This document shows positions 57,493 through 64,000 of a stretch of 64,000 nt of DNA, in pieces. Position numbers and translations under genes: made by a program. The DNA is from Candidatus Omnitrophota bacterium (lineage in GTDB: Bacteria; Omnitrophota; Gorgyraeia; Zapsychrales; Zapsychraceae): NCBI GenBank assembly GCA_050250375.1, contig JBFWOS010000002.1, positions 282,980-346,979 of the forward strand. Direction: 5' to 3'. The notes under the pieces were generated by a model, which was not told the DNA's origin, made no database searches, and worked only from the letters and a program-made list of their open reading frames with translations. Numbering within the stretch: position 1 is the first letter of the stretch; every line of letters starts with the position of its first letter.

Positions 57493-59571
57493 ATGCATTT
57501 ACGGTTAATCTTAACCAGTTTCATATTTTTTATGATCGTTGTTAAATCCGGTGATGCGGAAATTATCAAGATCCCCATTCCGGACCAGATTCAGTCGTTT
57601 ATGGATGAACGGCATTATAACCCGGCTGAGATTGACACGCTTTCCCTTCCGCCGAATACAAACAGGGAAGAAACTTATTTCATCGATGGAACGAACGGGA
57701 ATGACGAGTGGAACGGCCTGTTTCCGCGACACACCCATGGGAATAACGGACCGTTTAAAACAATTTCACGAGCGTCGGGGCGTTATGATGCGCATAAGAC
57801 GGGTGAACGGATATTGATAAAATCCGGATATTATAGGGAGGGGTTTGGGATCGGAAATTTAACCGGCCCACTCGATGAATTACATTATAATTCCTGGGGG
57901 CCTTATGGAGACGGCGAGGTTGTGATTGATGTCAGCCAGACTCCGGGGCTTGATGAATTTACGCAGTTCAACAATCAGGTGTGGAAGGCTGCGGTTAACA
58001 AGAAATGGCCGGGGTTTCCCGTCAGCAGTGTCTATTGGGCGGTGATGGACTGGGACCACCGGTCCTGCCGGCAGGCGATCGGATATAAAGGGAGCGACAA
58101 CGGGGGCACTAAAAACAGAGCCACGTCTCTGGTCGATAGCACCAAAGATTTTAAACAATATAAAAAAGAAGCCGGGTCCGGCCTGACGGATTTTATCGGA
58201 GCTTACATCTGGAATATTACAGACGGGTCCTGGGGTGTGGTTAGTTCAGTCACCACAACAAAAAACAAGAATGACACGTTGAATATTAAGAACGGATTGT
58301 CCGGCGGTAAAAATAATCTTTTTAACCCCGGAGATTCATATGCGGTTTATCAGCTTGACCGTGACGGGAAATTCGCCAATGTCGCAGATTCATTTTATAT
58401 TGTTTCCACTAAAGGAGAACCCCGCACCAGAAACTTAATCGCTAACAGTGGGGATTGGGACAATGCCTATGTTCCGATTTATTTGGAATCAAATCGGAAT
58501 TATTTTTATGGATTAACTATTGTTGGAGCTCCTTCCATTGGAATTATGACGGTGGGATTTGGAGGGCAACATACAATTTTTGAAAAATGCAGATTTTTGT
58601 TTACCGGAAAACATGCGACATCAGCTTTTGGAAACAATATTAAATCCATAAAATGGATTAAAAATTTCTTTTACGCGAACGTCATGATGAATTGGCCCAG
58701 GGGGAACACCTGGGGCGGAAACGGAGGGTGGCCGAATAATATCGGGGGAGGAGGTTCTCCCGAAACGGTGGCTTTAATTGAAGGAAATATAATTCTGAAC
58801 GGCGGCGGGGAAGGGCTGAATTCCGCCAGCGTCATAAAAGATAATATTGTCGTTGATAATTACAGTATGAATATTTACGCTGGGGACGGTCCGGTGATTG
58901 AGTCAGGGTATGAAATTTCTCATAATGATGTCATTTATACGGGGTACAGACCAGAAGATGCGCTGGAACGGTTTTATCTGGATGCGTCGTATAATGGCTT
59001 TCAACGGAATTATGTCAAGATGCATCCGAACGGAATTACTATCGCTTCGGAAAGAAGCGGAGGAGGGCATGCTCCTAAGGGGTTCAGGATCAAAAGTAAC
59101 AATATCATCGGATGCTGGAATGGAATTTCCGGTTATTTTGAGGTGCCCACGGCCGGATTTCAGAATTCTGTGATTGAGAATAATATAATCGTTGCCATGA
59201 CATCTCAGGATAGCCCGCCTTTATTGTATACAGAAAGTGCAGGGCTACAACTCCGGGCCAGAAAAGGGATAGATTTTAATACAGTCGTACGGAATAACCG
59301 GATTATAGGGGCAAACAATATGGACGGACATCACCAAATCATTTTAATTTACGGAAAAGATTATCCGGGTATTTCTGTCGATCATAATATTTATTCGTTT
59401 CCGGGAAATGATTCGTTCATGACGGATAGCGGGAAAAAGACGTTTGCCCAATGGAAGGCCTTGACCGGATATGACAAGAATTCTAAATTGACAGATGATC
59501 CGGGACTGGCAGGAAGGGACTGGACCGATTCTTCTAAAATCTTTAAACAGCATCTCCAGGTACGAGAGTAA
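57493..59571 (+). CDS. secreted right-handed parallel beta-helix repeat protein (polysaccharide lyase/hydrolase-like)
   Basis: Signal peptide. Repeated NNIIV/NNRIIG/GNIILNGGGEG beta-helix rungs. Confidence 0.45.
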   Translation: MHLRLILTSFIFFMIVVKSGDAEIIKIPIPDQIQSFMDERHYNPAEIDTLSLPPNTNREETYFIDGTNGNDEWNGLFPRHTHGNNGPFKTISRASGRYDAHKTGERILIKSGYYREGFGIGNLTGPLDELHYNSWGPYGDGEVVIDVSQTPGLDEFTQFNNQVWKAAVNKKWPGFPVSSVYWAVMDWDHRSCRQAIGYKGSDNGGTKNRATSLVDSTKDFKQYKKEAGSGLTDFIGAYIWNITDGSWGVVSSVTTTKNKNDTLNIKNGLSGGKNNLFNPGDSYAVYQLDRDGKFANVADSFYIVSTKGEPRTRNLIANSGDWDNAYVPIYLESNRNYFYGLTIVGAPSIGIMTVGFGGQHTIFEKCRFLFTGKHATSAFGNNIKSIKWIKNFFYANVMMNWPRGNTWGGNGGWPNNIGGGGSPETVALIEGNIILNGGGEGLNSASVIKDNIVVDNYSMNIYAGDGPVIESGYEISHNDVIYTGYRPEDALERFYLDASYNGFQRNYVKMHPNGITIASERSGGGHAPKGFRIKSNNIIGCWNGISGYFEVPTAGFQNSVIENNIIVAMTSQDSPPLLYTESAGLQLRARKGIDFNTVVRNNRIIGANNMDGHHQIILIYGKDYPGISVDHNIYSFPGNDSFMTDSGKKTFAQWKALTGYDKNSKLTDDPGLAGRDWTDSSKIFKQHLQVRE

Positions 59572-59667: not shown

Positions 59668-60279
59668 TTATGCTAATTTTCGTCGGCGTAAACCTAAAGC
59701 ACCCATCATGCCGGAAACGAATAATAATGAAGTGGCCGGTTCAGGAACCACGGCTTCGCGTGTGACGATTTTGAATTTCACACCGTCATTCCAGTAATGG
59801 CAGTCAGGATCAAATCCGAAACCGATCCGACCGTCGTTTAATGAATAATTCTTTAAGGTAGCCAGCTGATCAGCCGTAAAGTTATACACATAATTTTCAG
59901 CCGGGCCGGGATAATCGTTCAGATCGGTAAAGGTATCAAGCAGGATATCGTCACCTGGCCAGCTGGCGAAATTATCACCGCCGCCCTGATTGTCTTCAAA
60001 TGTGGTGACTCCCAATGTTGCGGAATCCAATAAATGGATGTAGAGGATATCTTGTTCTACGGTCCAGTTATTGATATTTTTGATGGAAAGGGTTGCGCTG
60101 ACGATCTGCTGGTTGGCCGGAAGAAGCCAGTTAACGCCCCAAGTATAATATTTATAATGATCCAGGTCATACAAATCAGCCGGTGATGGTGTGAATGTAT
60201 AGATGGCTGCAAAGGCTTTATTCACAGCCACACCGGTCAGGATAACGGTTAATAGAATAATCACTAAGTTTTTTCGCAT
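59668..60279 (-). CDS. PEP-CTERM sorting-domain protein (exosortase substrate)
   Basis: Signal peptide. C-terminal VPEPATSLLFVSGMMGALGLRRRKLA (PEP motif, TM helix, basic cluster). Confidence 0.75.
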   Translation of the reverse strand: MRKNLVIILLTVILTGVAVNKAFAAIYTFTPSPADLYDLDHYKYYTWGVNWLLPANQQIVSATLSIKNINNWTVEQDILYIHLLDSATLGVTTFEDNQGGGDNFASWPGDDILLDTFTDLNDYPGPAENYVYNFTADQLATLKNYSLNDGRIGFGFDPDCHYWNDGVKFKIVTREAVVPEPATSLLFVSGMMGALGLRRRKLA

Positions 60280-60652: not shown

Positions 60653-62521
60653 ATGTGCGGAATTTTTGGGTTATTGCATCACCATTCGGATCAGCCTCCG
60701 GATACCGGTTTGTTAAATGTCTCGGCTAAAAAATTAAGCCATCGCGGCCCCGATAACCAGACTGTATTTACGGACAAAGGCGTCGGGTTTGTTCATACGC
60801 GGTTATCGCTGCTTGACCTGTCGGAACGAAGTAACCAGCCTTTTTTCAGCCGTACCAGATCCCATTGCCTGGTGTATAACGGCGAGATTTACAATTTTGT
60901 GGAAATTCGTGAAGAGTTGGAAAAAAAGGGGATTACGTTTCGTACGACCAGTGACACGGAAGTCGTGCTTGAGGCGATGCTGCATTACGGTTACAAAGAG
61001 GCCGTAAAACGCTTTGACGGAATGTTCTCGTTGGCCCTGTACGATTTCGCGGCTGAAACCCTGACCCTTGTCCGTGACCGGTTCGGGATCAAACCGTTAT
61101 TTTATTACGACCAGGATGACCGGTTTATCTTCGCTTCCGAATTATCGGCCCTGGTGCCGTGGATCAAACCTGAAGCAAATATACCGTCGATCATTTTCTT
61201 TATACAGGGGTTCGGCGGCCCGACCAAAGGACCGACTTTCTTACAGCATGTCCGCATTTCCGAGCCCGGAGAGATCATCACCGTTCAAAAAGGAAGGCGG
61301 GCCAGTTTTAAAACAGCGGTCACGATCACGGACCTGTATGACAAAGAGTACACACAGTCCCTGAGTACCCTGAGTCCCGGGCAGATTATTGACAAGGCCG
61401 ATGAACTTTTGTTTTCGTCCGTCAAAAAACAACTGGTGGCGGACGTTCCTGTCGGGGCGTTCTGCAGCGGAGGGGTTGATTCTTCGGTCGTCATGGCCAT
61501 GGCCAGCCGGCTCCATGGTGACCTGGCCATCTTTCACGCCAATGTTTTGGGAAAATACAGTGAACTGGACGCGGCGAAGATGCTGGCCGCGCATCTGAAA
61601 CTGGATCTGAAATTTATCGATACATCCGATCAGGATTTTATTACACTGATCCCTGAAATCATTCACCATTACAGTCATCCCTATGTTTATCATCCGAATT
61701 CAATCCCGTTTTATAAAGTGTCCCAGCTGGTCCGGCAAAACCGGATCAAGGCGGTTTTATCAGGGGAAGGGTCCGATGAATGTTTTATCGGGTATCCCTG
61801 GCTGATTCCCAACACCAAAGAAAATTTCAAAGGGATTTTCCGGCAGTCCCTGCTGTATTCGATCAAACAACTGGCCGACCGGCTGAGGGGGAAGATCCTG
61901 GCCGAGAAGAAAAATGATGATTCCGACAATATCCTCAATTTTCTGGAAGTCCGTTTGGGAGACATTAATATTCAGAATATGTTGTCGGAAAACAATACTC
62001 GGGAATTTGACAAAAAAGATATGATTACATTAAATCAGCTTCATTATCACCTGCGCACATTGCTGCATCGTAACGATTGCCTGGGGATGTCCTCCAGCAT
62101 TGAGTCCCGGTTTCCGTTTCTGGATCTCGGGGTGGTCAAATTTGCCGTCAACCTGCCGTATCAATACAAGGTCAGGTTTTCGCCGTCTTACCGGCATGAT
62201 ACGCATGAGTTCCTGGTGGATAAATGGATTCTCAGGTCCGTGGCCGCCCGTTATTTACCCAAAGGCCTCGCTTATCGCCGGAAAATAGGATTTCCGACCA
62301 ATGCCCAGTCCCGCATGAAAATCCCGCTGGAATTCTTTGAGAAGGCCTTTGTCTGCAGTCTATTTGACTTGTCGAAAAAAGAGTTTTCGGATTTCTACAC
62401 TCACGCCAGCCAGAATGTCAAACTCAAACTCATGCAGACAGAGATCTGGGCGCAGTTATTTATTCACCAAGTACCCATTGAAAAATTAAAAGACGATTTA
62501 ACAAAAAAAATAACGTACTAA
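60653..62521 (+). CDS. asparagine synthetase family amidotransferase (second paralog)
   Basis: MCGIFGLL Ntn Cys. SGGVDSS PP-loop. 622 aa. Divergent from the PEP-CTERM gene across an AT-rich 370-bp region. Confidence 0.75.
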   Translation: MCGIFGLLHHHSDQPPDTGLLNVSAKKLSHRGPDNQTVFTDKGVGFVHTRLSLLDLSERSNQPFFSRTRSHCLVYNGEIYNFVEIREELEKKGITFRTTSDTEVVLEAMLHYGYKEAVKRFDGMFSLALYDFAAETLTLVRDRFGIKPLFYYDQDDRFIFASELSALVPWIKPEANIPSIIFFIQGFGGPTKGPTFLQHVRISEPGEIITVQKGRRASFKTAVTITDLYDKEYTQSLSTLSPGQIIDKADELLFSSVKKQLVADVPVGAFCSGGVDSSVVMAMASRLHGDLAIFHANVLGKYSELDAAKMLAAHLKLDLKFIDTSDQDFITLIPEIIHHYSHPYVYHPNSIPFYKVSQLVRQNRIKAVLSGEGSDECFIGYPWLIPNTKENFKGIFRQSLLYSIKQLADRLRGKILAEKKNDDSDNILNFLEVRLGDINIQNMLSENNTREFDKKDMITLNQLHYHLRTLLHRNDCLGMSSSIESRFPFLDLGVVKFAVNLPYQYKVRFSPSYRHDTHEFLVDKWILRSVAARYLPKGLAYRRKIGFPTNAQSRMKIPLEFFEKAFVCSLFDLSKKEFSDFYTHASQNVKLKLMQTEIWAQLFIHQVPIEKLKDDLTKKITY

Positions 62522-62554
62522 TCGTATAAATAGCATCAGAACTCCGCAAGTCCA

Positions 62555-62571
62555 AAACGACACTATTTTTT
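62555..62571. repeat. 17-bp repeat AAACGACACTATTTTTT, left boundary of the toxin cassette
   Basis: Direct copy at 63685..63701. Inverted near-copy at 63497..63517. Confidence 0.55.
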
Positions 62572-63186
62572 CGCCGGTGGGATACAGAATCGAGCATATA
62601 CCATTACCGCGCGAGGCAGTATGACCCTAGTATCGGCAGGTTTTTGCAGAGGGATCCGTTGGACTACATTGATGGAATGAATCTTTATACTTATGTTCAT
62701 AACAACCCAACTAATTTTACAGACCCAACAGGTGAAGCATGGTGGATACCAATTATTGAAGGTGCTTTATTTGCATATGATACTTATGGATTAATTTCAA
62801 CCTTTAGTGATCCGTGTGCAAGCGGTGCAGAAAAGGCTGCTGTTGGAGCAGCATGGACTGCTGGGGCTTTATCTTTTGGAGATGGGACTACTTTAGCGGC
62901 ACGAAGAGCAGCACAAGAAGCCGCTGAAAGAGCCTCTAGTCAATTTAGTAAGAAAATTACAAAACAAATAAGTGAAAGGGGCTGGACAAAAGAATCAATT
63001 CACTCTACGATATTAAATCCTACTCAAAGAAAGACTGCTATAAATAAAGCTACCGGCAATAAAGCAACTGCATTTTTTAGTAAAGATGGCTCATATGTTG
63101 TGAAAGATGATGTTACTGGTGACATAATACAAATTAGTGACAAAACTGACCCATTTTGGGTTCCAGATAGTAGCATTGGGAGATAA
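62572..63186 (+). CDS. orphan Rhs/YD-repeat core-tip fragment fused to a polymorphic toxin C-terminal domain; no full rhs gene upstream
   Basis: The frame is open from 62530. ...YHYRARQYDPSIGRFLQRDPLDYIDGMNLYTYVHNNPTNFTDPTGE is the hyper-conserved Rhs core end (DPxG cleavage region). About 140 aa of unrelated sequence follows. Low GC. Confidence 0.6.
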   Translation, partial: RRWDTESSIYHYRARQYDPSIGRFLQRDPLDYIDGMNLYTYVHNNPTNFTDPTGEAWWIPIIEGALFAYDTYGLISTFSDPCASGAEKAAVGAAWTAGALSFGDGTTLAARRAAQEAAERASSQFSKKITKQISERGWTKESIHSTILNPTQRKTAINKATGNKATAFFSKDGSYVVKDDVTGDIIQISDKTDPFWVPDSSIGR

Positions 63187-63191
63187 AAGTT

Positions 63192-63494
63192 ATGAAAAAT
63201 TTTAACAAGGTAGAGTTAGAATTTAAGGAGGTGGGAACGATAAGAGGGGGTATTTTATTCTTGCCATTGGATAAGGCTATCAAGATTGTCAATCGTGCTG
63301 AGCAAGAAGGAATTGGAATACTAGGTATAGATGCGTTTTATTTAAAAAGTGATAAAACACAACCTTCAATGGATGATTCAAAGGAGTTTAAATTTGAGGA
63401 CAACACAGATTATGATGAAGTAAGAACATTTCTTAAAAATAAGAGCGAGAATAAAGAGCTTTGGTTTGAGGTGGTTTTTGATGAGAAGGAATAA
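63192..63494 (+). CDS. putative cognate immunity protein
   Basis: 100-aa acidic ORF 5 bp downstream of the toxin domain, with the same low GC. Position and size are typical of Rhs/CDI immunity genes. Confidence 0.4.
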   Translation: MKNFNKVELEFKEVGTIRGGILFLPLDKAIKIVNRAEQEGIGILGIDAFYLKSDKTQPSMDDSKEFKFEDNTDYDEVRTFLKNKSENKELWFEVVFDEKE

Positions 63495-63496
63495 GA

Positions 63497-63517
63497 AAAT
63501 AATAGTGTCGTTTCTCG
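63497..63517. repeat. inverted near-copy of the cassette boundary repeat (AAAATAATAGTGTCGTTTCTC)
   Basis: The reverse complement matches GAGAAACGACACTATT(T/A)TTTT at 63682..63702. Confidence 0.45.
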
Positions 63518-63684
63518 CAAAGTACTTAAATCTGGGTATTTATAAATAATTCAATTAAGTGATGACATATCGAAACGGCTTCAAGACCAGATCATGGAGT
63601 TATTACCCAAAAAACGAAAAAGAGGGAGTCCTCGAAATCGTGATTTGAATTTAGTATAAATAATTGTATAATCAAGACTTCTGA

Positions 63685-63701
63685 GAAACGACACTATTTT
63701 T
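63685..63701. repeat. 17-bp repeat AAACGACACTATTTTTT, right boundary of the toxin cassette
   Basis: Identical to 62555..62571. Overlaps the stop codon of the MBOAT gene on the minus strand. Confidence 0.55.
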
Positions 63702-64000
63702 TATATCCATTTATGAATGAGCGGATGTTTGTTGAGACTGAACATTTTTGTGAGACGCTGCCTGTACGGTTGTAAAACTAACGAGAATACCAGATAAAGC
63801 CCATGGAGGGCTCCCCAAATGATAAAAGTCCAGCGGGCGCCATGCCAAAGCCCGCTGACTAGAAAGATGATCAGCAAATTACAATACCACCGGATTTTTC
63901 CTAAACGATTTCCTCCCAAAGGAATGTACATATAGTCTCGGAACCATGTGGACAAGGATATGTGCCAACGGCGCCAGAATTCTGCAATGGACTGCGAAAA
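63701..64000 (-). CDS. MBOAT family O-acyltransferase (AlgI/DltB-like), C-terminal part; gene continues past the window edge
   Basis: Read-through beyond the ORF-track TTG start gives [32 protein letters not shown]...[19 protein letters not shown]. Confidence 0.7.

Follow-up and report, generated by a model that had tools for sequence, protein, structure and literature searches.

A probable orphan Rhs tip of colicin E5 type beside relics of a RAYT-type mobile element in an Omnitrophota genome

We analysed a stretch of 64,000 nucleotides from an Omnitrophota MAG (the whole stretch is called 'the window' hereafter), which carries close to its right end, within an exopolysaccharide locus, an Rhs fragment followed by a small acidic ORF. 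This arrangement is most likely a displaced, or 'orphan', Rhs C-terminal module, lying beside the relics of a mobile element of the RAYT type, that is, an element with a Y1/HUH transposase. The features on which this reading is based are the following, in window coordinates.

62524..62571, + strand: solo, diverged right-end remnant of a putative RAYT-type element, consisting of the subterminal sequence GTATAAATA and the 17-mer AAACGACACTATTTTTT; begins 3 nt past the asnB stop
62572..62736, + strand: Rhs core end (RRWDTESSIYHYRARQYDP...NPTNFTDPTGE), 5'-truncated and without start codon; TIGR03696
62737..62940, + strand: hydrophobic/helical linker of 68 aa (AWWIPIIEGALFAYDTY...DPCAS...GDGTTLAARR) that joins the toxin to the Rhs cleavage motif
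62941..63186, + strand: predicted anticodon tRNase domain of colicin E5 type, toxin residues 124-204 plus stop; PF12106
63192-63494, + strand: predicted ImmE5-like immunity gene, 100 aa, acidic (pI 4.78), preceded by a GGGAGA ribosome-binding site of its own
63495..63703, + strand: putative internally deleted RAYT-type element of 209 nt, with ends at 63497-63516 and 63683-63702 and the last 28 transposase codons at 63567-63650
63701..64000, - strand: 3' end of an MBOAT paralogue (Pfam MBOAT), which runs off the window and has its stop codon within the right end of the element

The Rhs part belongs to a stop-to-stop frame (62530-63186) that reads ...TTLFFRRWDTESSIYHYRARQYDPSIGRFLQRDPLDYIDGMNLYTYVHNNPTNFTDPTGE and continues for 148 more residues. 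It comprises the last ~55 residues of an Rhs core, the DPxG self-cleavage motif among them, and matches the TIGR03696 Rhs_assc_core profile (E 1.3e-19, 70.4 bits for a cutoff of 32.5) over positions 23-75 of 76, with the PxxxxDPxG motif present. The shell ends of Rhs and TcC proteins in the PDB match it as well, with E values of 1e-8 to 1e-5. The first canonical starts in the frame are TTG 62644, TTG 62659 and ATG 62677, and the original prediction of an Rhs tip devoid of a proper start is borne out. The same holds for the surroundings that had been described: the stop of an asnB-like gene (TIGR01536, E 1.4e-113) lies at 62521, which leaves 50 bp to the Rhs homology, and tblastn detected no rhs body upstream and no further Rhs homology elsewhere in the 64-kb window. 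Both the YD-repeat shell (about 1000 or more residues) and the N-terminal plug/delivery region are missing, only 55 residues preceding the cleavage motif. When the 10 kb downstream of the window are added, the sole other Rhs homology is a second truncated fragment, 5 kb downstream, whose protein is 78% identical to the core end; the homology between the two begins exactly at 62572.

No full-length rhs was found in the 62 kb that precede the module or the 10 kb that follow it, the survey having covered 84 kb of the genome, on a contig that extends ~0.9 Mb further. A wider search for full-length rhs genes, with the core of the second fragment as query, returned only proteins of less than 270 aa and missed P0013, the parent of the query; given this retrieval bias, its result cannot show the absence of a full-length rhs. 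Another Omnitrophota MAG has the canonical locus, in which a full-length rhs is followed by orphan fragments.

Orphan rhs-CT/immunity modules are recognised by a core-end homology lacking a start, followed by a tip that varies and then by a small ORF, and all three are present here. GC content falls stepwise from the Rhs core end (0.448) through linker and toxin (0.391) to the immunity ORF (0.333), for a window mean of 0.476. This is the typical pattern of Rhs tips, and it agrees with the predicted AT-richness of the cassette. The module can be compared with the orphan rhs-CT/rhsI modules of Enterobacteria (Poole et al. 2011, PMC3150448; Koskiniemi et al. 2014, PMC3967940). As in these, the conserved core end and the variable toxin tip stand alone without a translation start, the cognate immunity gene follows directly, GC content is below that of the core, and reactivation is presumed to proceed via recombination at the core-end homology. 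Unlike them, it has no full-length rhs upstream in an array over the distances given above, it lies in an exopolysaccharide locus, its 5' break falls at the end of a mobile element, and its host is an Omnitrophota MAG.

The domain following the core had been described as lacking any recognisable motif. This did not hold: a profile search assigned it to PF12106, the colicin E5-type tRNases, with an E value of 7e-22 and 78 bits (cutoff 25), over profile positions 4-87 of 88. In the PDB, the colicin E5 C-terminal ribonuclease domain (CRD; 2A8K/2DFX) matches it with E 1.5e-11, and NCBI names the protein 'colicin E5-related ribonuclease'. Eight residues of the E5 CRD, K25, Q29, R33, K60, Y81, I94, S95 and W102, whose catalytic or substrate-binding roles have been described (PMC1669751, PMC3482391), align to identical residues of the toxin. 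The basic triad K25/R33/K60 corresponds to K128, R136 and K154, and the others are Q132, Y175, I188, S189 and W196 (numbering from 62572). Judging from this alignment, all active-site residues known for colicin E5 are conserved in the toxin domain. By homology, the toxin is predicted to cut the anticodon loop of tRNA Tyr, His, Asn and Asp, its QUN/GUN anticodon specificity being inferred from colicin E5 only.

The linker that separates the toxin from the Rhs cleavage motif gave no match in a Pfam search. In P0002 and P0003 this module is followed by a divergent ColE5 domain, and in L121 by an Ntox8 toxin (32% identity, E 5e-18); the linker is one that is reused with other toxins.

The small acidic ORF, for its part, had been proposed to be the immunity gene, and several observations argue for this. 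Its ATG lies 8 nt downstream of GGGAGA, and only 5 nt separate it from the toxin. On L121, an independent contig, the adjacency of toxin and immunity gene is repeated (71% and 59% identity): there, the closest relative of the 100-aa protein stands 2 nt behind a ColE5 fragment that is 71% identical to the toxin. The protein itself found no match in a Pfam search, PF11480 included. Its family, which Pfam does not cover, counts 267 clusters at 50% identity, and one member of the family scores E 0.005 to PF11480, below the cutoff. With the family profile, the top PDB match was the colicin E5 immunity protein, through the ILGID motif, at a weak E value of 0.039. The AlphaFold model of the protein has a pLDDT of 95.3, and a Foldseek search with this model gave a sole match at E <= 0.001, namely ImmE5 (2FHZ_A; E 3.3e-4, TM 0.61, 83 columns). 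Mainly on the strength of predicted fold and gene context, we assign the 100-aa ORF as a distant homologue of ImmE5. By homology, the predicted immunity protein would block the RNase by filling its basic active-site pocket.

Toxin and immunity protein thus resemble colicin E5/ImmE5 (2DFX, 2FHZ, 2A8K; PMC1669751) in toxin residues, immunity fold, ILGID motif and the order of toxin, then immunity gene. They differ from it in that the toxin is carried by an Rhs tip instead of a colicin equipped with domains for receptor binding and translocation, in that the toxin is devoid of the 9-residue loop of E5, and in that the immunity protein, which is missed by PF11480, is only about 20% identical to ImmE5. 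RHS-repeat proteins and filamentous haemagglutinins have already been reported to carry the ColE5 tRNase as a tip, paired with ImmE5 as immunity protein (Zhang et al. 2012, PMC3482391). The Tox-ColE5 domains of that survey came from beta-/gamma-proteobacteria and firmicutes, whereas the present one is found in Omnitrophota, together with a divergent ImmE5 branch.

Lacking a start codon, the YD-repeat shell and the N-terminal delivery region, the fragment cannot be exported as it stands, and we consider the toxin to be probably silent. One may ask whether it acts inside the cell instead, an internal start at TTG 62644 or ATG 62677 giving an intracellular toxin that would form a toxin-antitoxin-like pair with the immunity protein. 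There is a precedent, since a Salmonella orphan rhs is reported to act inside the cell in a toxin-antitoxin-like manner (PMC7043789). In addition, the toxin domain is intact with all its active-site residues, the immunity gene has a good ribosome-binding site, and P0003, a relative on another contig, is called from the equivalent Met (MNLYEYVHNNP...). This last start may, however, be merely the first ATG open to the gene caller in a truncated frame. None of the three internal starts of the Rhs frame (TTG 62644, TTG 62659 and ATG 62677) has a Shine-Dalgarno sequence at good spacing, and a promoter/terminator scan of the region detected nothing above shuffled expectation, promoter-like sites being no commoner than in shuffles (6, for 5.0 expected). 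An intracellular toxin appears unlikely on these grounds.

We then come to the repeats. The 17-mer AAACGACACTATTTTTT is found at 62555-62571 (+), at 63686-63702 (+) and, with one mismatch, at 63497-63513 (-). The copy at 62555 and the inverted near-copy at 63497 are as originally predicted, while the second direct copy starts at 63686 and not at 63685. Allowing up to 3 mismatches, 4 matches were counted for 0.35 expected, and no shuffle reached 4. The last two copies belong to the ends of the 209-nt unit at 63495-63703, whose 20-nt arms are 95% complementary, and the resulting doublet folds as a long hairpin (z = -4.8). The element end GAGAAACGACACTATT has no internal self-complementarity, that is, it is not a palindrome. 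A 100% identical 209-nt unit is present 2.6 kb downstream (L001:12896-13104), between an EEP-family gene and small membrane-protein ORFs; both units are non-autonomous doublets, made of two inverted repeats and a spacer. The solo end at 62524-62571 was defined by alignment with the four ends of these two complete units, by its exact 17-mer and by its right-end orientation. Altogether, the 84 kb surveyed contain five element ends, all clustered within 3.7 kb. No target-site duplications could be identified around the units and no terminator was found at the 17-mer in the promoter/terminator scan. An Rfam search of L001:9000-17000 was without match, so that described RNA families do not explain the unit.

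The nature of the unit was revealed by its relatives. The end motif GAGAAACGACAC adjoins a Y1 transposase gene in four other contigs (L058, L131, L021 and L130), none of which has Rhs genes nearby. In the first three it stands, inverted, on both sides of the Y1_Tnp / REP_Tyr_transpos gene, and in L130 at one end. The transposase of these relatives matches Pfam Y1_Tnp with E 3.7e-17, and passes narrowly the NCBIfam RAYT model REP_Tyr_transpos (81.4 bits for a cutoff of 80). Furthermore, the window unit retains a remnant, ISKRLQDQIMELLPKKRKRGSPRNRDLN, that shares 54% identity with the C-terminal end of the transposase of L058 and lies at the same distance from the right end. Taken alone, the 37-aa remnant has no Pfam match; a reading of it as the N-terminus of an IS5-family protein was dropped, since it aligns to the Y1 transposase C-terminus of L058. 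A scan of representative genomes with the 17-mer listed about 119 single matches, a number close to chance expectation, and follow-up of the matches listed left only L058, L021 and L079 as real relatives, L079 holding a similar doublet of about 170 nt. Scanning metagenome contigs with a 20-mer gave 4 matches: those in L130 and L131 adjoin RAYT genes, and the other two are solo ends. From these comparisons, in which the adjoining RAYT genes were seen in other contigs and none was found in the 84 kb surveyed of the source genome, we identify the 17-mer as the terminal inverted repeat of a Y1/HUH element of the RAYT type (REP-associated tyrosine transposase).

As in the RAYT/REPIN systems (Bertels & Rainey 2011, PMC3116915; PMC3337134), a Y1/HUH transposase gene is placed between inverted short repeats, and non-autonomous inverted doublets with a spacer are found in intergenic positions, just past stop codons. 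The repeat differs from classical REPs in not being itself palindromic. Compared to typical REPINs, the 209-nt unit is larger and has retained a transposase remnant, for which reason it looks like a recent internal deletion. In the 84 kb surveyed only five ends were seen, all of them clustered, where RAYT/REPIN systems have many copies dispersed over a genome.

The repeats had originally been interpreted as a device for cassette insertion or exchange. They would then be dedicated recombination sites, comparable to integron attC or to a shufflon, at which a site-specific recombinase inserts or swaps toxin/immunity cassettes. The geometry invites such an interpretation: the cassette is bracketed by the direct pair at 62555 and 63686 and by the inverted copy at 63497, one repeat boundary is the exact start of the Rhs homology, and all five copies lie in this mosaic region. 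Yet in four unrelated contigs, with no Rhs genes nearby, it is Y1 transposase genes that the motif adjoins, and the identical unit 2.6 kb away has unrelated neighbours. Moreover, other orphan Rhs arrays (L121-L125, L132, L133) are devoid of the motif, and no integrase, invertase or recombinase family was found among the called genes of the 20-kb locus. Finally, a right end stands on one side of the cassette and a left end on its other side, both pointing outward, which makes the cassette flanking DNA rather than cargo. We regard a dedicated exchange system as highly improbable.

To the right of the cassette, the MBOAT paralogue is truncated at residue 369 of about 485. Its residues 1-369 are 62% identical to an intact MBOAT of 485 aa (L001:16693-18150), after which it is cut, and the cut coincides with the end of the 63495-63703 unit. 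The missing C-terminal third was not found in the 74 kb searched. An assembly artefact, by which unrelated genome parts or strains were joined through the identical 209-nt repeat, is hardly credible: the source is a MAG, whose assembler could mis-pair joins across two 100% identical units 2.6 kb apart, and same-sample short-read contigs do break at window 62646 and L001:13879, but the asnB / solo-end / Rhs junction recurs mismatch-free in a separate, independently built short-read contig, the exact match of the solo end to the units is 17 nt, too short to mislead an assembler, and Rhs fragment and MBOAT are truncated under either pairing of the unit flanks.

The displaced Rhs module beside RAYT-type relics may have arisen as follows. 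The solo end passes into the Rhs homology without a single base between them, and for this reason Rhs very probably lost its 5' part in a rearrangement associated with the repeats. A copy of the element would have inserted into, or recombined at, an rhs gene at the codon between ...FTG and RRWD, and everything upstream of the break, up to the end of asnB, would then have been lost, so that about 48 nt of the right end of the element came to be joined to the Rhs tip. Another copy, with an internal deletion, sits just past the immunity stop codon and would have truncated the MBOAT gene. Either an insertion followed by a deletion or a recombination of one repeat copy with another may have led to this arrangement. 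The predicted immunity gene could still protect against neighbours deploying this toxin, while the tip itself would be reactivated only by recombination onto a full-length rhs via the conserved core-end sequence.

A more general proposal would be that RAYT-type elements of Omnitrophota and of related bacteria in the PVC superphylum are not passive neighbours, and that their ends, or recombination among their copies, disrupt rhs genes at the core end time and again, scattering toxin/immunity tips into unrelated loci. We hold this to be decidedly unlikely; if true, it would amount to a transposon-driven route to orphan toxin cassettes unlinked to any main rhs gene. Such scattering is compatible with a break that falls exactly at an element end, with the five clustered ends, and with the orphan arrays lacking an rhs gene that are frequent in related genomes.

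Overall, the locus is of a known kind: an ordinary leftover of a bacterial warfare gene, severed from its delivery body, beside the relics of a small mobile element. It reveals no new mechanism and leaves the understanding of Rhs toxins unchanged. For genome scans it carries a caution, as short repeats on either side of a cassette can turn out to be the termini of a mobile element unrelated to it. Naming the ImmE5-like family of 267 clusters that Pfam misses would improve the annotation of polymorphic toxins in uncultivated phyla.

The components of the orphan Rhs cassette and its borders are, in window coordinates:

60653-62521: upstream gene, asparagine synthase family amidotransferase (TIGR01536, E 1.4e-113)
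62527-62529 (stop) to 63186, plus strand: toxin-bearing frame, opening after the stop, 218 aa
62737-62940, plus strand: linker of ~68-70 aa, mildly hydrophobic, between the DPTGE motif and the RNase
63192-63494, plus strand: small ORF, 100 residues, pI 4.78
62555-62571 and 63686-63702, plus strand, and 63497-63513, minus strand, with one mismatch: copies of a 17-mer
63495-63703: repeat unit of 209 nt, whose 20-nt inverted ends (the copies at 63497 and 63686) are 95% complementary

The original prediction of a start-less frame carrying an Rhs core end was borne out. The HMM search for the Rhs core gave a significant match to TIGR03696 (Rhs-associated core; residues 16-68 of the frame, 70.4 bits, cutoff 32.5, E 1.3e-19), and the Rhs part also matches the final ~50 residues of solved Rhs and TcC shells. 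The frame reads ...TTLFFRRWDTESSIYHYRARQYDPSIGRFLQRDPLDYIDGMNLYTYVHNNPTNFTDPTGE and continues for 148 more residues. Its earliest canonical in-frame starts are TTG 62644, TTG 62659 and ATG 62677, and a well-spaced Shine-Dalgarno is absent at all three. The asnB-like gene does end 50 bp before the start of Rhs similarity, and the cassette is AT-richer than its flanks, as had been noted: GC content is 0.448 in the Rhs core end, 0.391 in linker plus toxin and 0.333 in the small ORF, compared to a window mean of 0.476.

The toxin domain, said to have no recognisable motif, is in fact of the ColE5 type. The C-terminal 81 residues match Pfam Colicin_E5 (PF12106; 78 bits vs 25, E 7e-22), and the domain also matches the solved colicin E5 C-terminal ribonuclease domain (2A8K and 2DFX, E 1.5e-11); the NCBI name of the protein is already 'colicin E5-related ribonuclease' (Candidatus Omnitrophota MAG). 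In colicin E5, the basic cluster at the scissile phosphate consists of R33, K25 and K60, and killing is abolished by R33Q and by K25Q/K60Q; Q29 binds phosphate, W102 stacks on guanine and I94 supports R33 (2006 structure paper, PMC1669751). Y81 and S95 were added to the list by Zhang et al. (PMC3482391). In the PDB alignment, K25, Q29, R33, K60, Y81, I94, S95 and W102 pair with the identical residues K128, Q132, R136, K154, Y175, I188, S189 and W196 (numbered from 62572). Since all listed residues are conserved, the domain looks catalytically intact, as judged from its sequence. Such a toxin would act by cutting tRNA Tyr, His, Asn and Asp in the anticodon loop.

Pfam gave no match for the linker. 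It recurs ahead of a divergent ColE5 domain in two relatives of the toxin fragment, P0002 and P0003, and ahead of an Ntox8 toxin in another contig, L121. It acts like a pre-toxin segment that can be reused with different toxins, and may be a translocation or pre-toxin module that such proteins share. The segment following the Rhs DPxG cleavage site has a conserved DPCAS motif (window 62737-62940; L121:1345-1560).

Downstream, the small acidic ORF was found as predicted, with GGGAGA 8 nt ahead of its ATG. A word-indexed search returned a sole relative, P0034 (59% identity), whose gene in L121 follows, at a distance of 2 nt, a 68-aa ColE5 fragment with 71% identity to the window toxin. Searching 1.84 billion cluster representatives exhaustively with HMMER yielded a family of 267 clusters (E <= 0.001), almost all 90-110 aa long, with the common motifs RGG, ILGID.F, TQP.ME.S and FE.V. 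No relevant Pfam family was matched by any of 45 members; one member reached E 0.005 against Pfam ImmE5 (below cutoff). The top PDB match of the family profile is the colicin E5 immunity protein, a weak match (E 0.039) running through ...A.e...e..k.g..ILGIDG. A confident AlphaFold model on the family alignment (pLDDT 95.3, pTM 0.87) has an ImmE5-like fold: Foldseek gave a single significant PDB match, the ImmE5 chain of the E5 complex (2FHZ_A; E 3.3e-4, probability 1.00, TM 0.61). From this predicted structure, on which the homology depends, we conclude that the toxin-adjacent ORF is probably a distant ImmE5 homologue. The Asp of ILGID is near-invariant across the family and, as we read the numbering, probably corresponds to ImmE5 Asp51. 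Asp51 contacts the K25/R33/K60 cluster, mimicking the substrate phosphate (PMC1669751). The acidic partner would occupy the basic pocket and so block the toxin.

The copy number of the 17-mer in the window is far above chance. The plus-strand copy at 62555 and the inverted copy at 63497 stand as first described, while the second plus-strand copy lies at 63686, not 63685. A second unit 2.6 kb downstream, on the window's own contig (GCA_050181705.1, 1.006 Mb; L001:12896-13104), is 100% identical to the window unit and lies beside unrelated genes. In genome and metagenome scans, the motif (T/C)AGAAACGACAC(T/C)A occurs directly beside a 240-260-aa gene in four contigs, other matches being at chance level. 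It lies on both sides of the gene, inverted, in L058, L131 and L021, and at the one side contained in the contig in L130. The L058 product is a Y1/HUH transposase: it matches Pfam Y1_Tnp (E 3.7e-17) and only just passes for the NCBIfam REP-associated tyrosine transposase (RAYT; 81.4 bits vs cutoff 80). The repeats are of RAYT-type origin. The window unit still encodes ISKRLQDQIMELLPKKRKRGSPRNRDLN, 54% identical to the final 28 residues of this transposase. Because this remnant matches the transposase C-terminus at the same spacing from the right end, the unit is a RAYT-type element derivative, REPIN-like and with an internal deletion. As single-stranded DNA it folds into a long hairpin (z = -4.8); Rfam gave no match for it. 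An inverted doublet of ~170 nt with the AGAAACGACAC core, between two convergent genes of a Planctomycetia-labelled MAG (L079:1327-1506), is a REPIN-like derivative of the same family, without the transposase remnant.

No conventional target-site duplication was seen at the units. The outermost ~10 nt of the element end are tandemly duplicated just outside it in two independent copies (L001:13094-13113, ACTATTTTTTACTATTTTTT; L058:1497-1518, CTATTTTTTTTCTATTTTTTTT, reverse complement), which might reflect a target preference or cleavage site of the Y1 transposase.

The repeats had been proposed as a device for cassette insertion or exchange. Intact elements have the motif's T-rich side pointing outward; by this rule the 62555 copy is a right end, with asnB on the side where its interior would be, and ~48 nt of that end can still be recognised, the subterminal TATAAATA among them. 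The 63497 copy is a left end with its interior to its right. It follows that the cassette is DNA between two elements, not cargo within one. Both gene truncations coincide exactly with element ends. The Rhs tip resembles a second Rhs fragment (L001:14194-15219) from the very first base past the solo end at 62555, and the second fragment has YD repeats upstream of that same point; an MBOAT paralogue is cut at residue 369 of 485 by the other end of the window unit. The second fragment (L001:14194-15500, 5 kb past the window end) is a 341-aa truncated frame with a few YD repeats and a core end 78% identical to that of the window; neither its C-terminal tip nor the overlapping 93-aa ORF that follows has a Pfam match.

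The sequence comes from a MAG, in which the joins running through the pair of identical 209-nt units are provisional. The asnB/solo end/Rhs tip junction is reproduced without mismatch in an independently built short-read contig of the same sample. A short-read contig from this sample (SRR27751815) stops at window 62646, inside the Rhs core end; exact matches to the other local Rhs fragment reach no more than 17 nt, which hints that the sample contains another rhs copy, or a strain variant, sharing the preceding sequence.

All five element ends of the 84 kb examined fall within 3.7 kb, an AT-rich mosaic between asnB and the MBOAT-AlgX pair of an exopolysaccharide locus. This locus, in which the orphan cassette is embedded, is of the exosortase type (also secretin, glycosyltransferases, MBOAT, AlgX). 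A 203-aa protein at 59668-60279 (minus strand) ends in a PEP-CTERM sorting signal (VPEPATSLLF...RRRKLA), and its gene adjoins that of a 692-aa secreted-looking protein (57493-59571, plus strand).

Of the toxin's relatives the nearest is P0002 (302 aa, 51% identity), likewise a truncated Rhs fragment; it is the first of three fragments in an array whose start lies 20 bp beyond a Na/Ala symporter gene and which has no full-length rhs. Similar scattered fragments occur in L132. In these arrays or scatters (L122:10001-15880 and L132:10001-15910), fragments of ~250-700 aa are each followed by a small ORF, and no full-length rhs lies near them. The homology search for a full-length rhs returned short proteins only and missed the query's own parent, a retrieval bias. 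A complete rhs locus of classical layout is present in another Omnitrophota MAG (GCA_043821285.1, L133:2429-13857), where a 1575-aa Rhs carrying DUF6531 is followed by a 72-aa ORF and then by two orphan fragments, both with a small ORF of their own. This locus is placed within the S10 ribosomal-protein operon, flanked by rplB and rpsS.

Two routes could have led to the window arrangement: an element inserted into an rhs gene and a deletion then extended leftward, or copies of the repeat recombined with each other. Lacking both a start codon and a delivery body, the Rhs tip would be silent; expression of the immunity gene may persist and still give protection. The literature documents orphan rhs tips with immunity genes well (PMC3150448, PMC3967940), a 2012 survey lists ColE5 tips on RHS-repeat proteins alongside ImmE5 immunity (PMC3482391), and RAYT/REPIN systems are known (PMC3116915, PMC3337134). 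What is new is confined to details: an Omnitrophota host, an ImmE5 branch that is divergent and outside the coverage of Pfam, a RAYT-associated repeat that is non-palindromic, and an Rhs break located at an element end.
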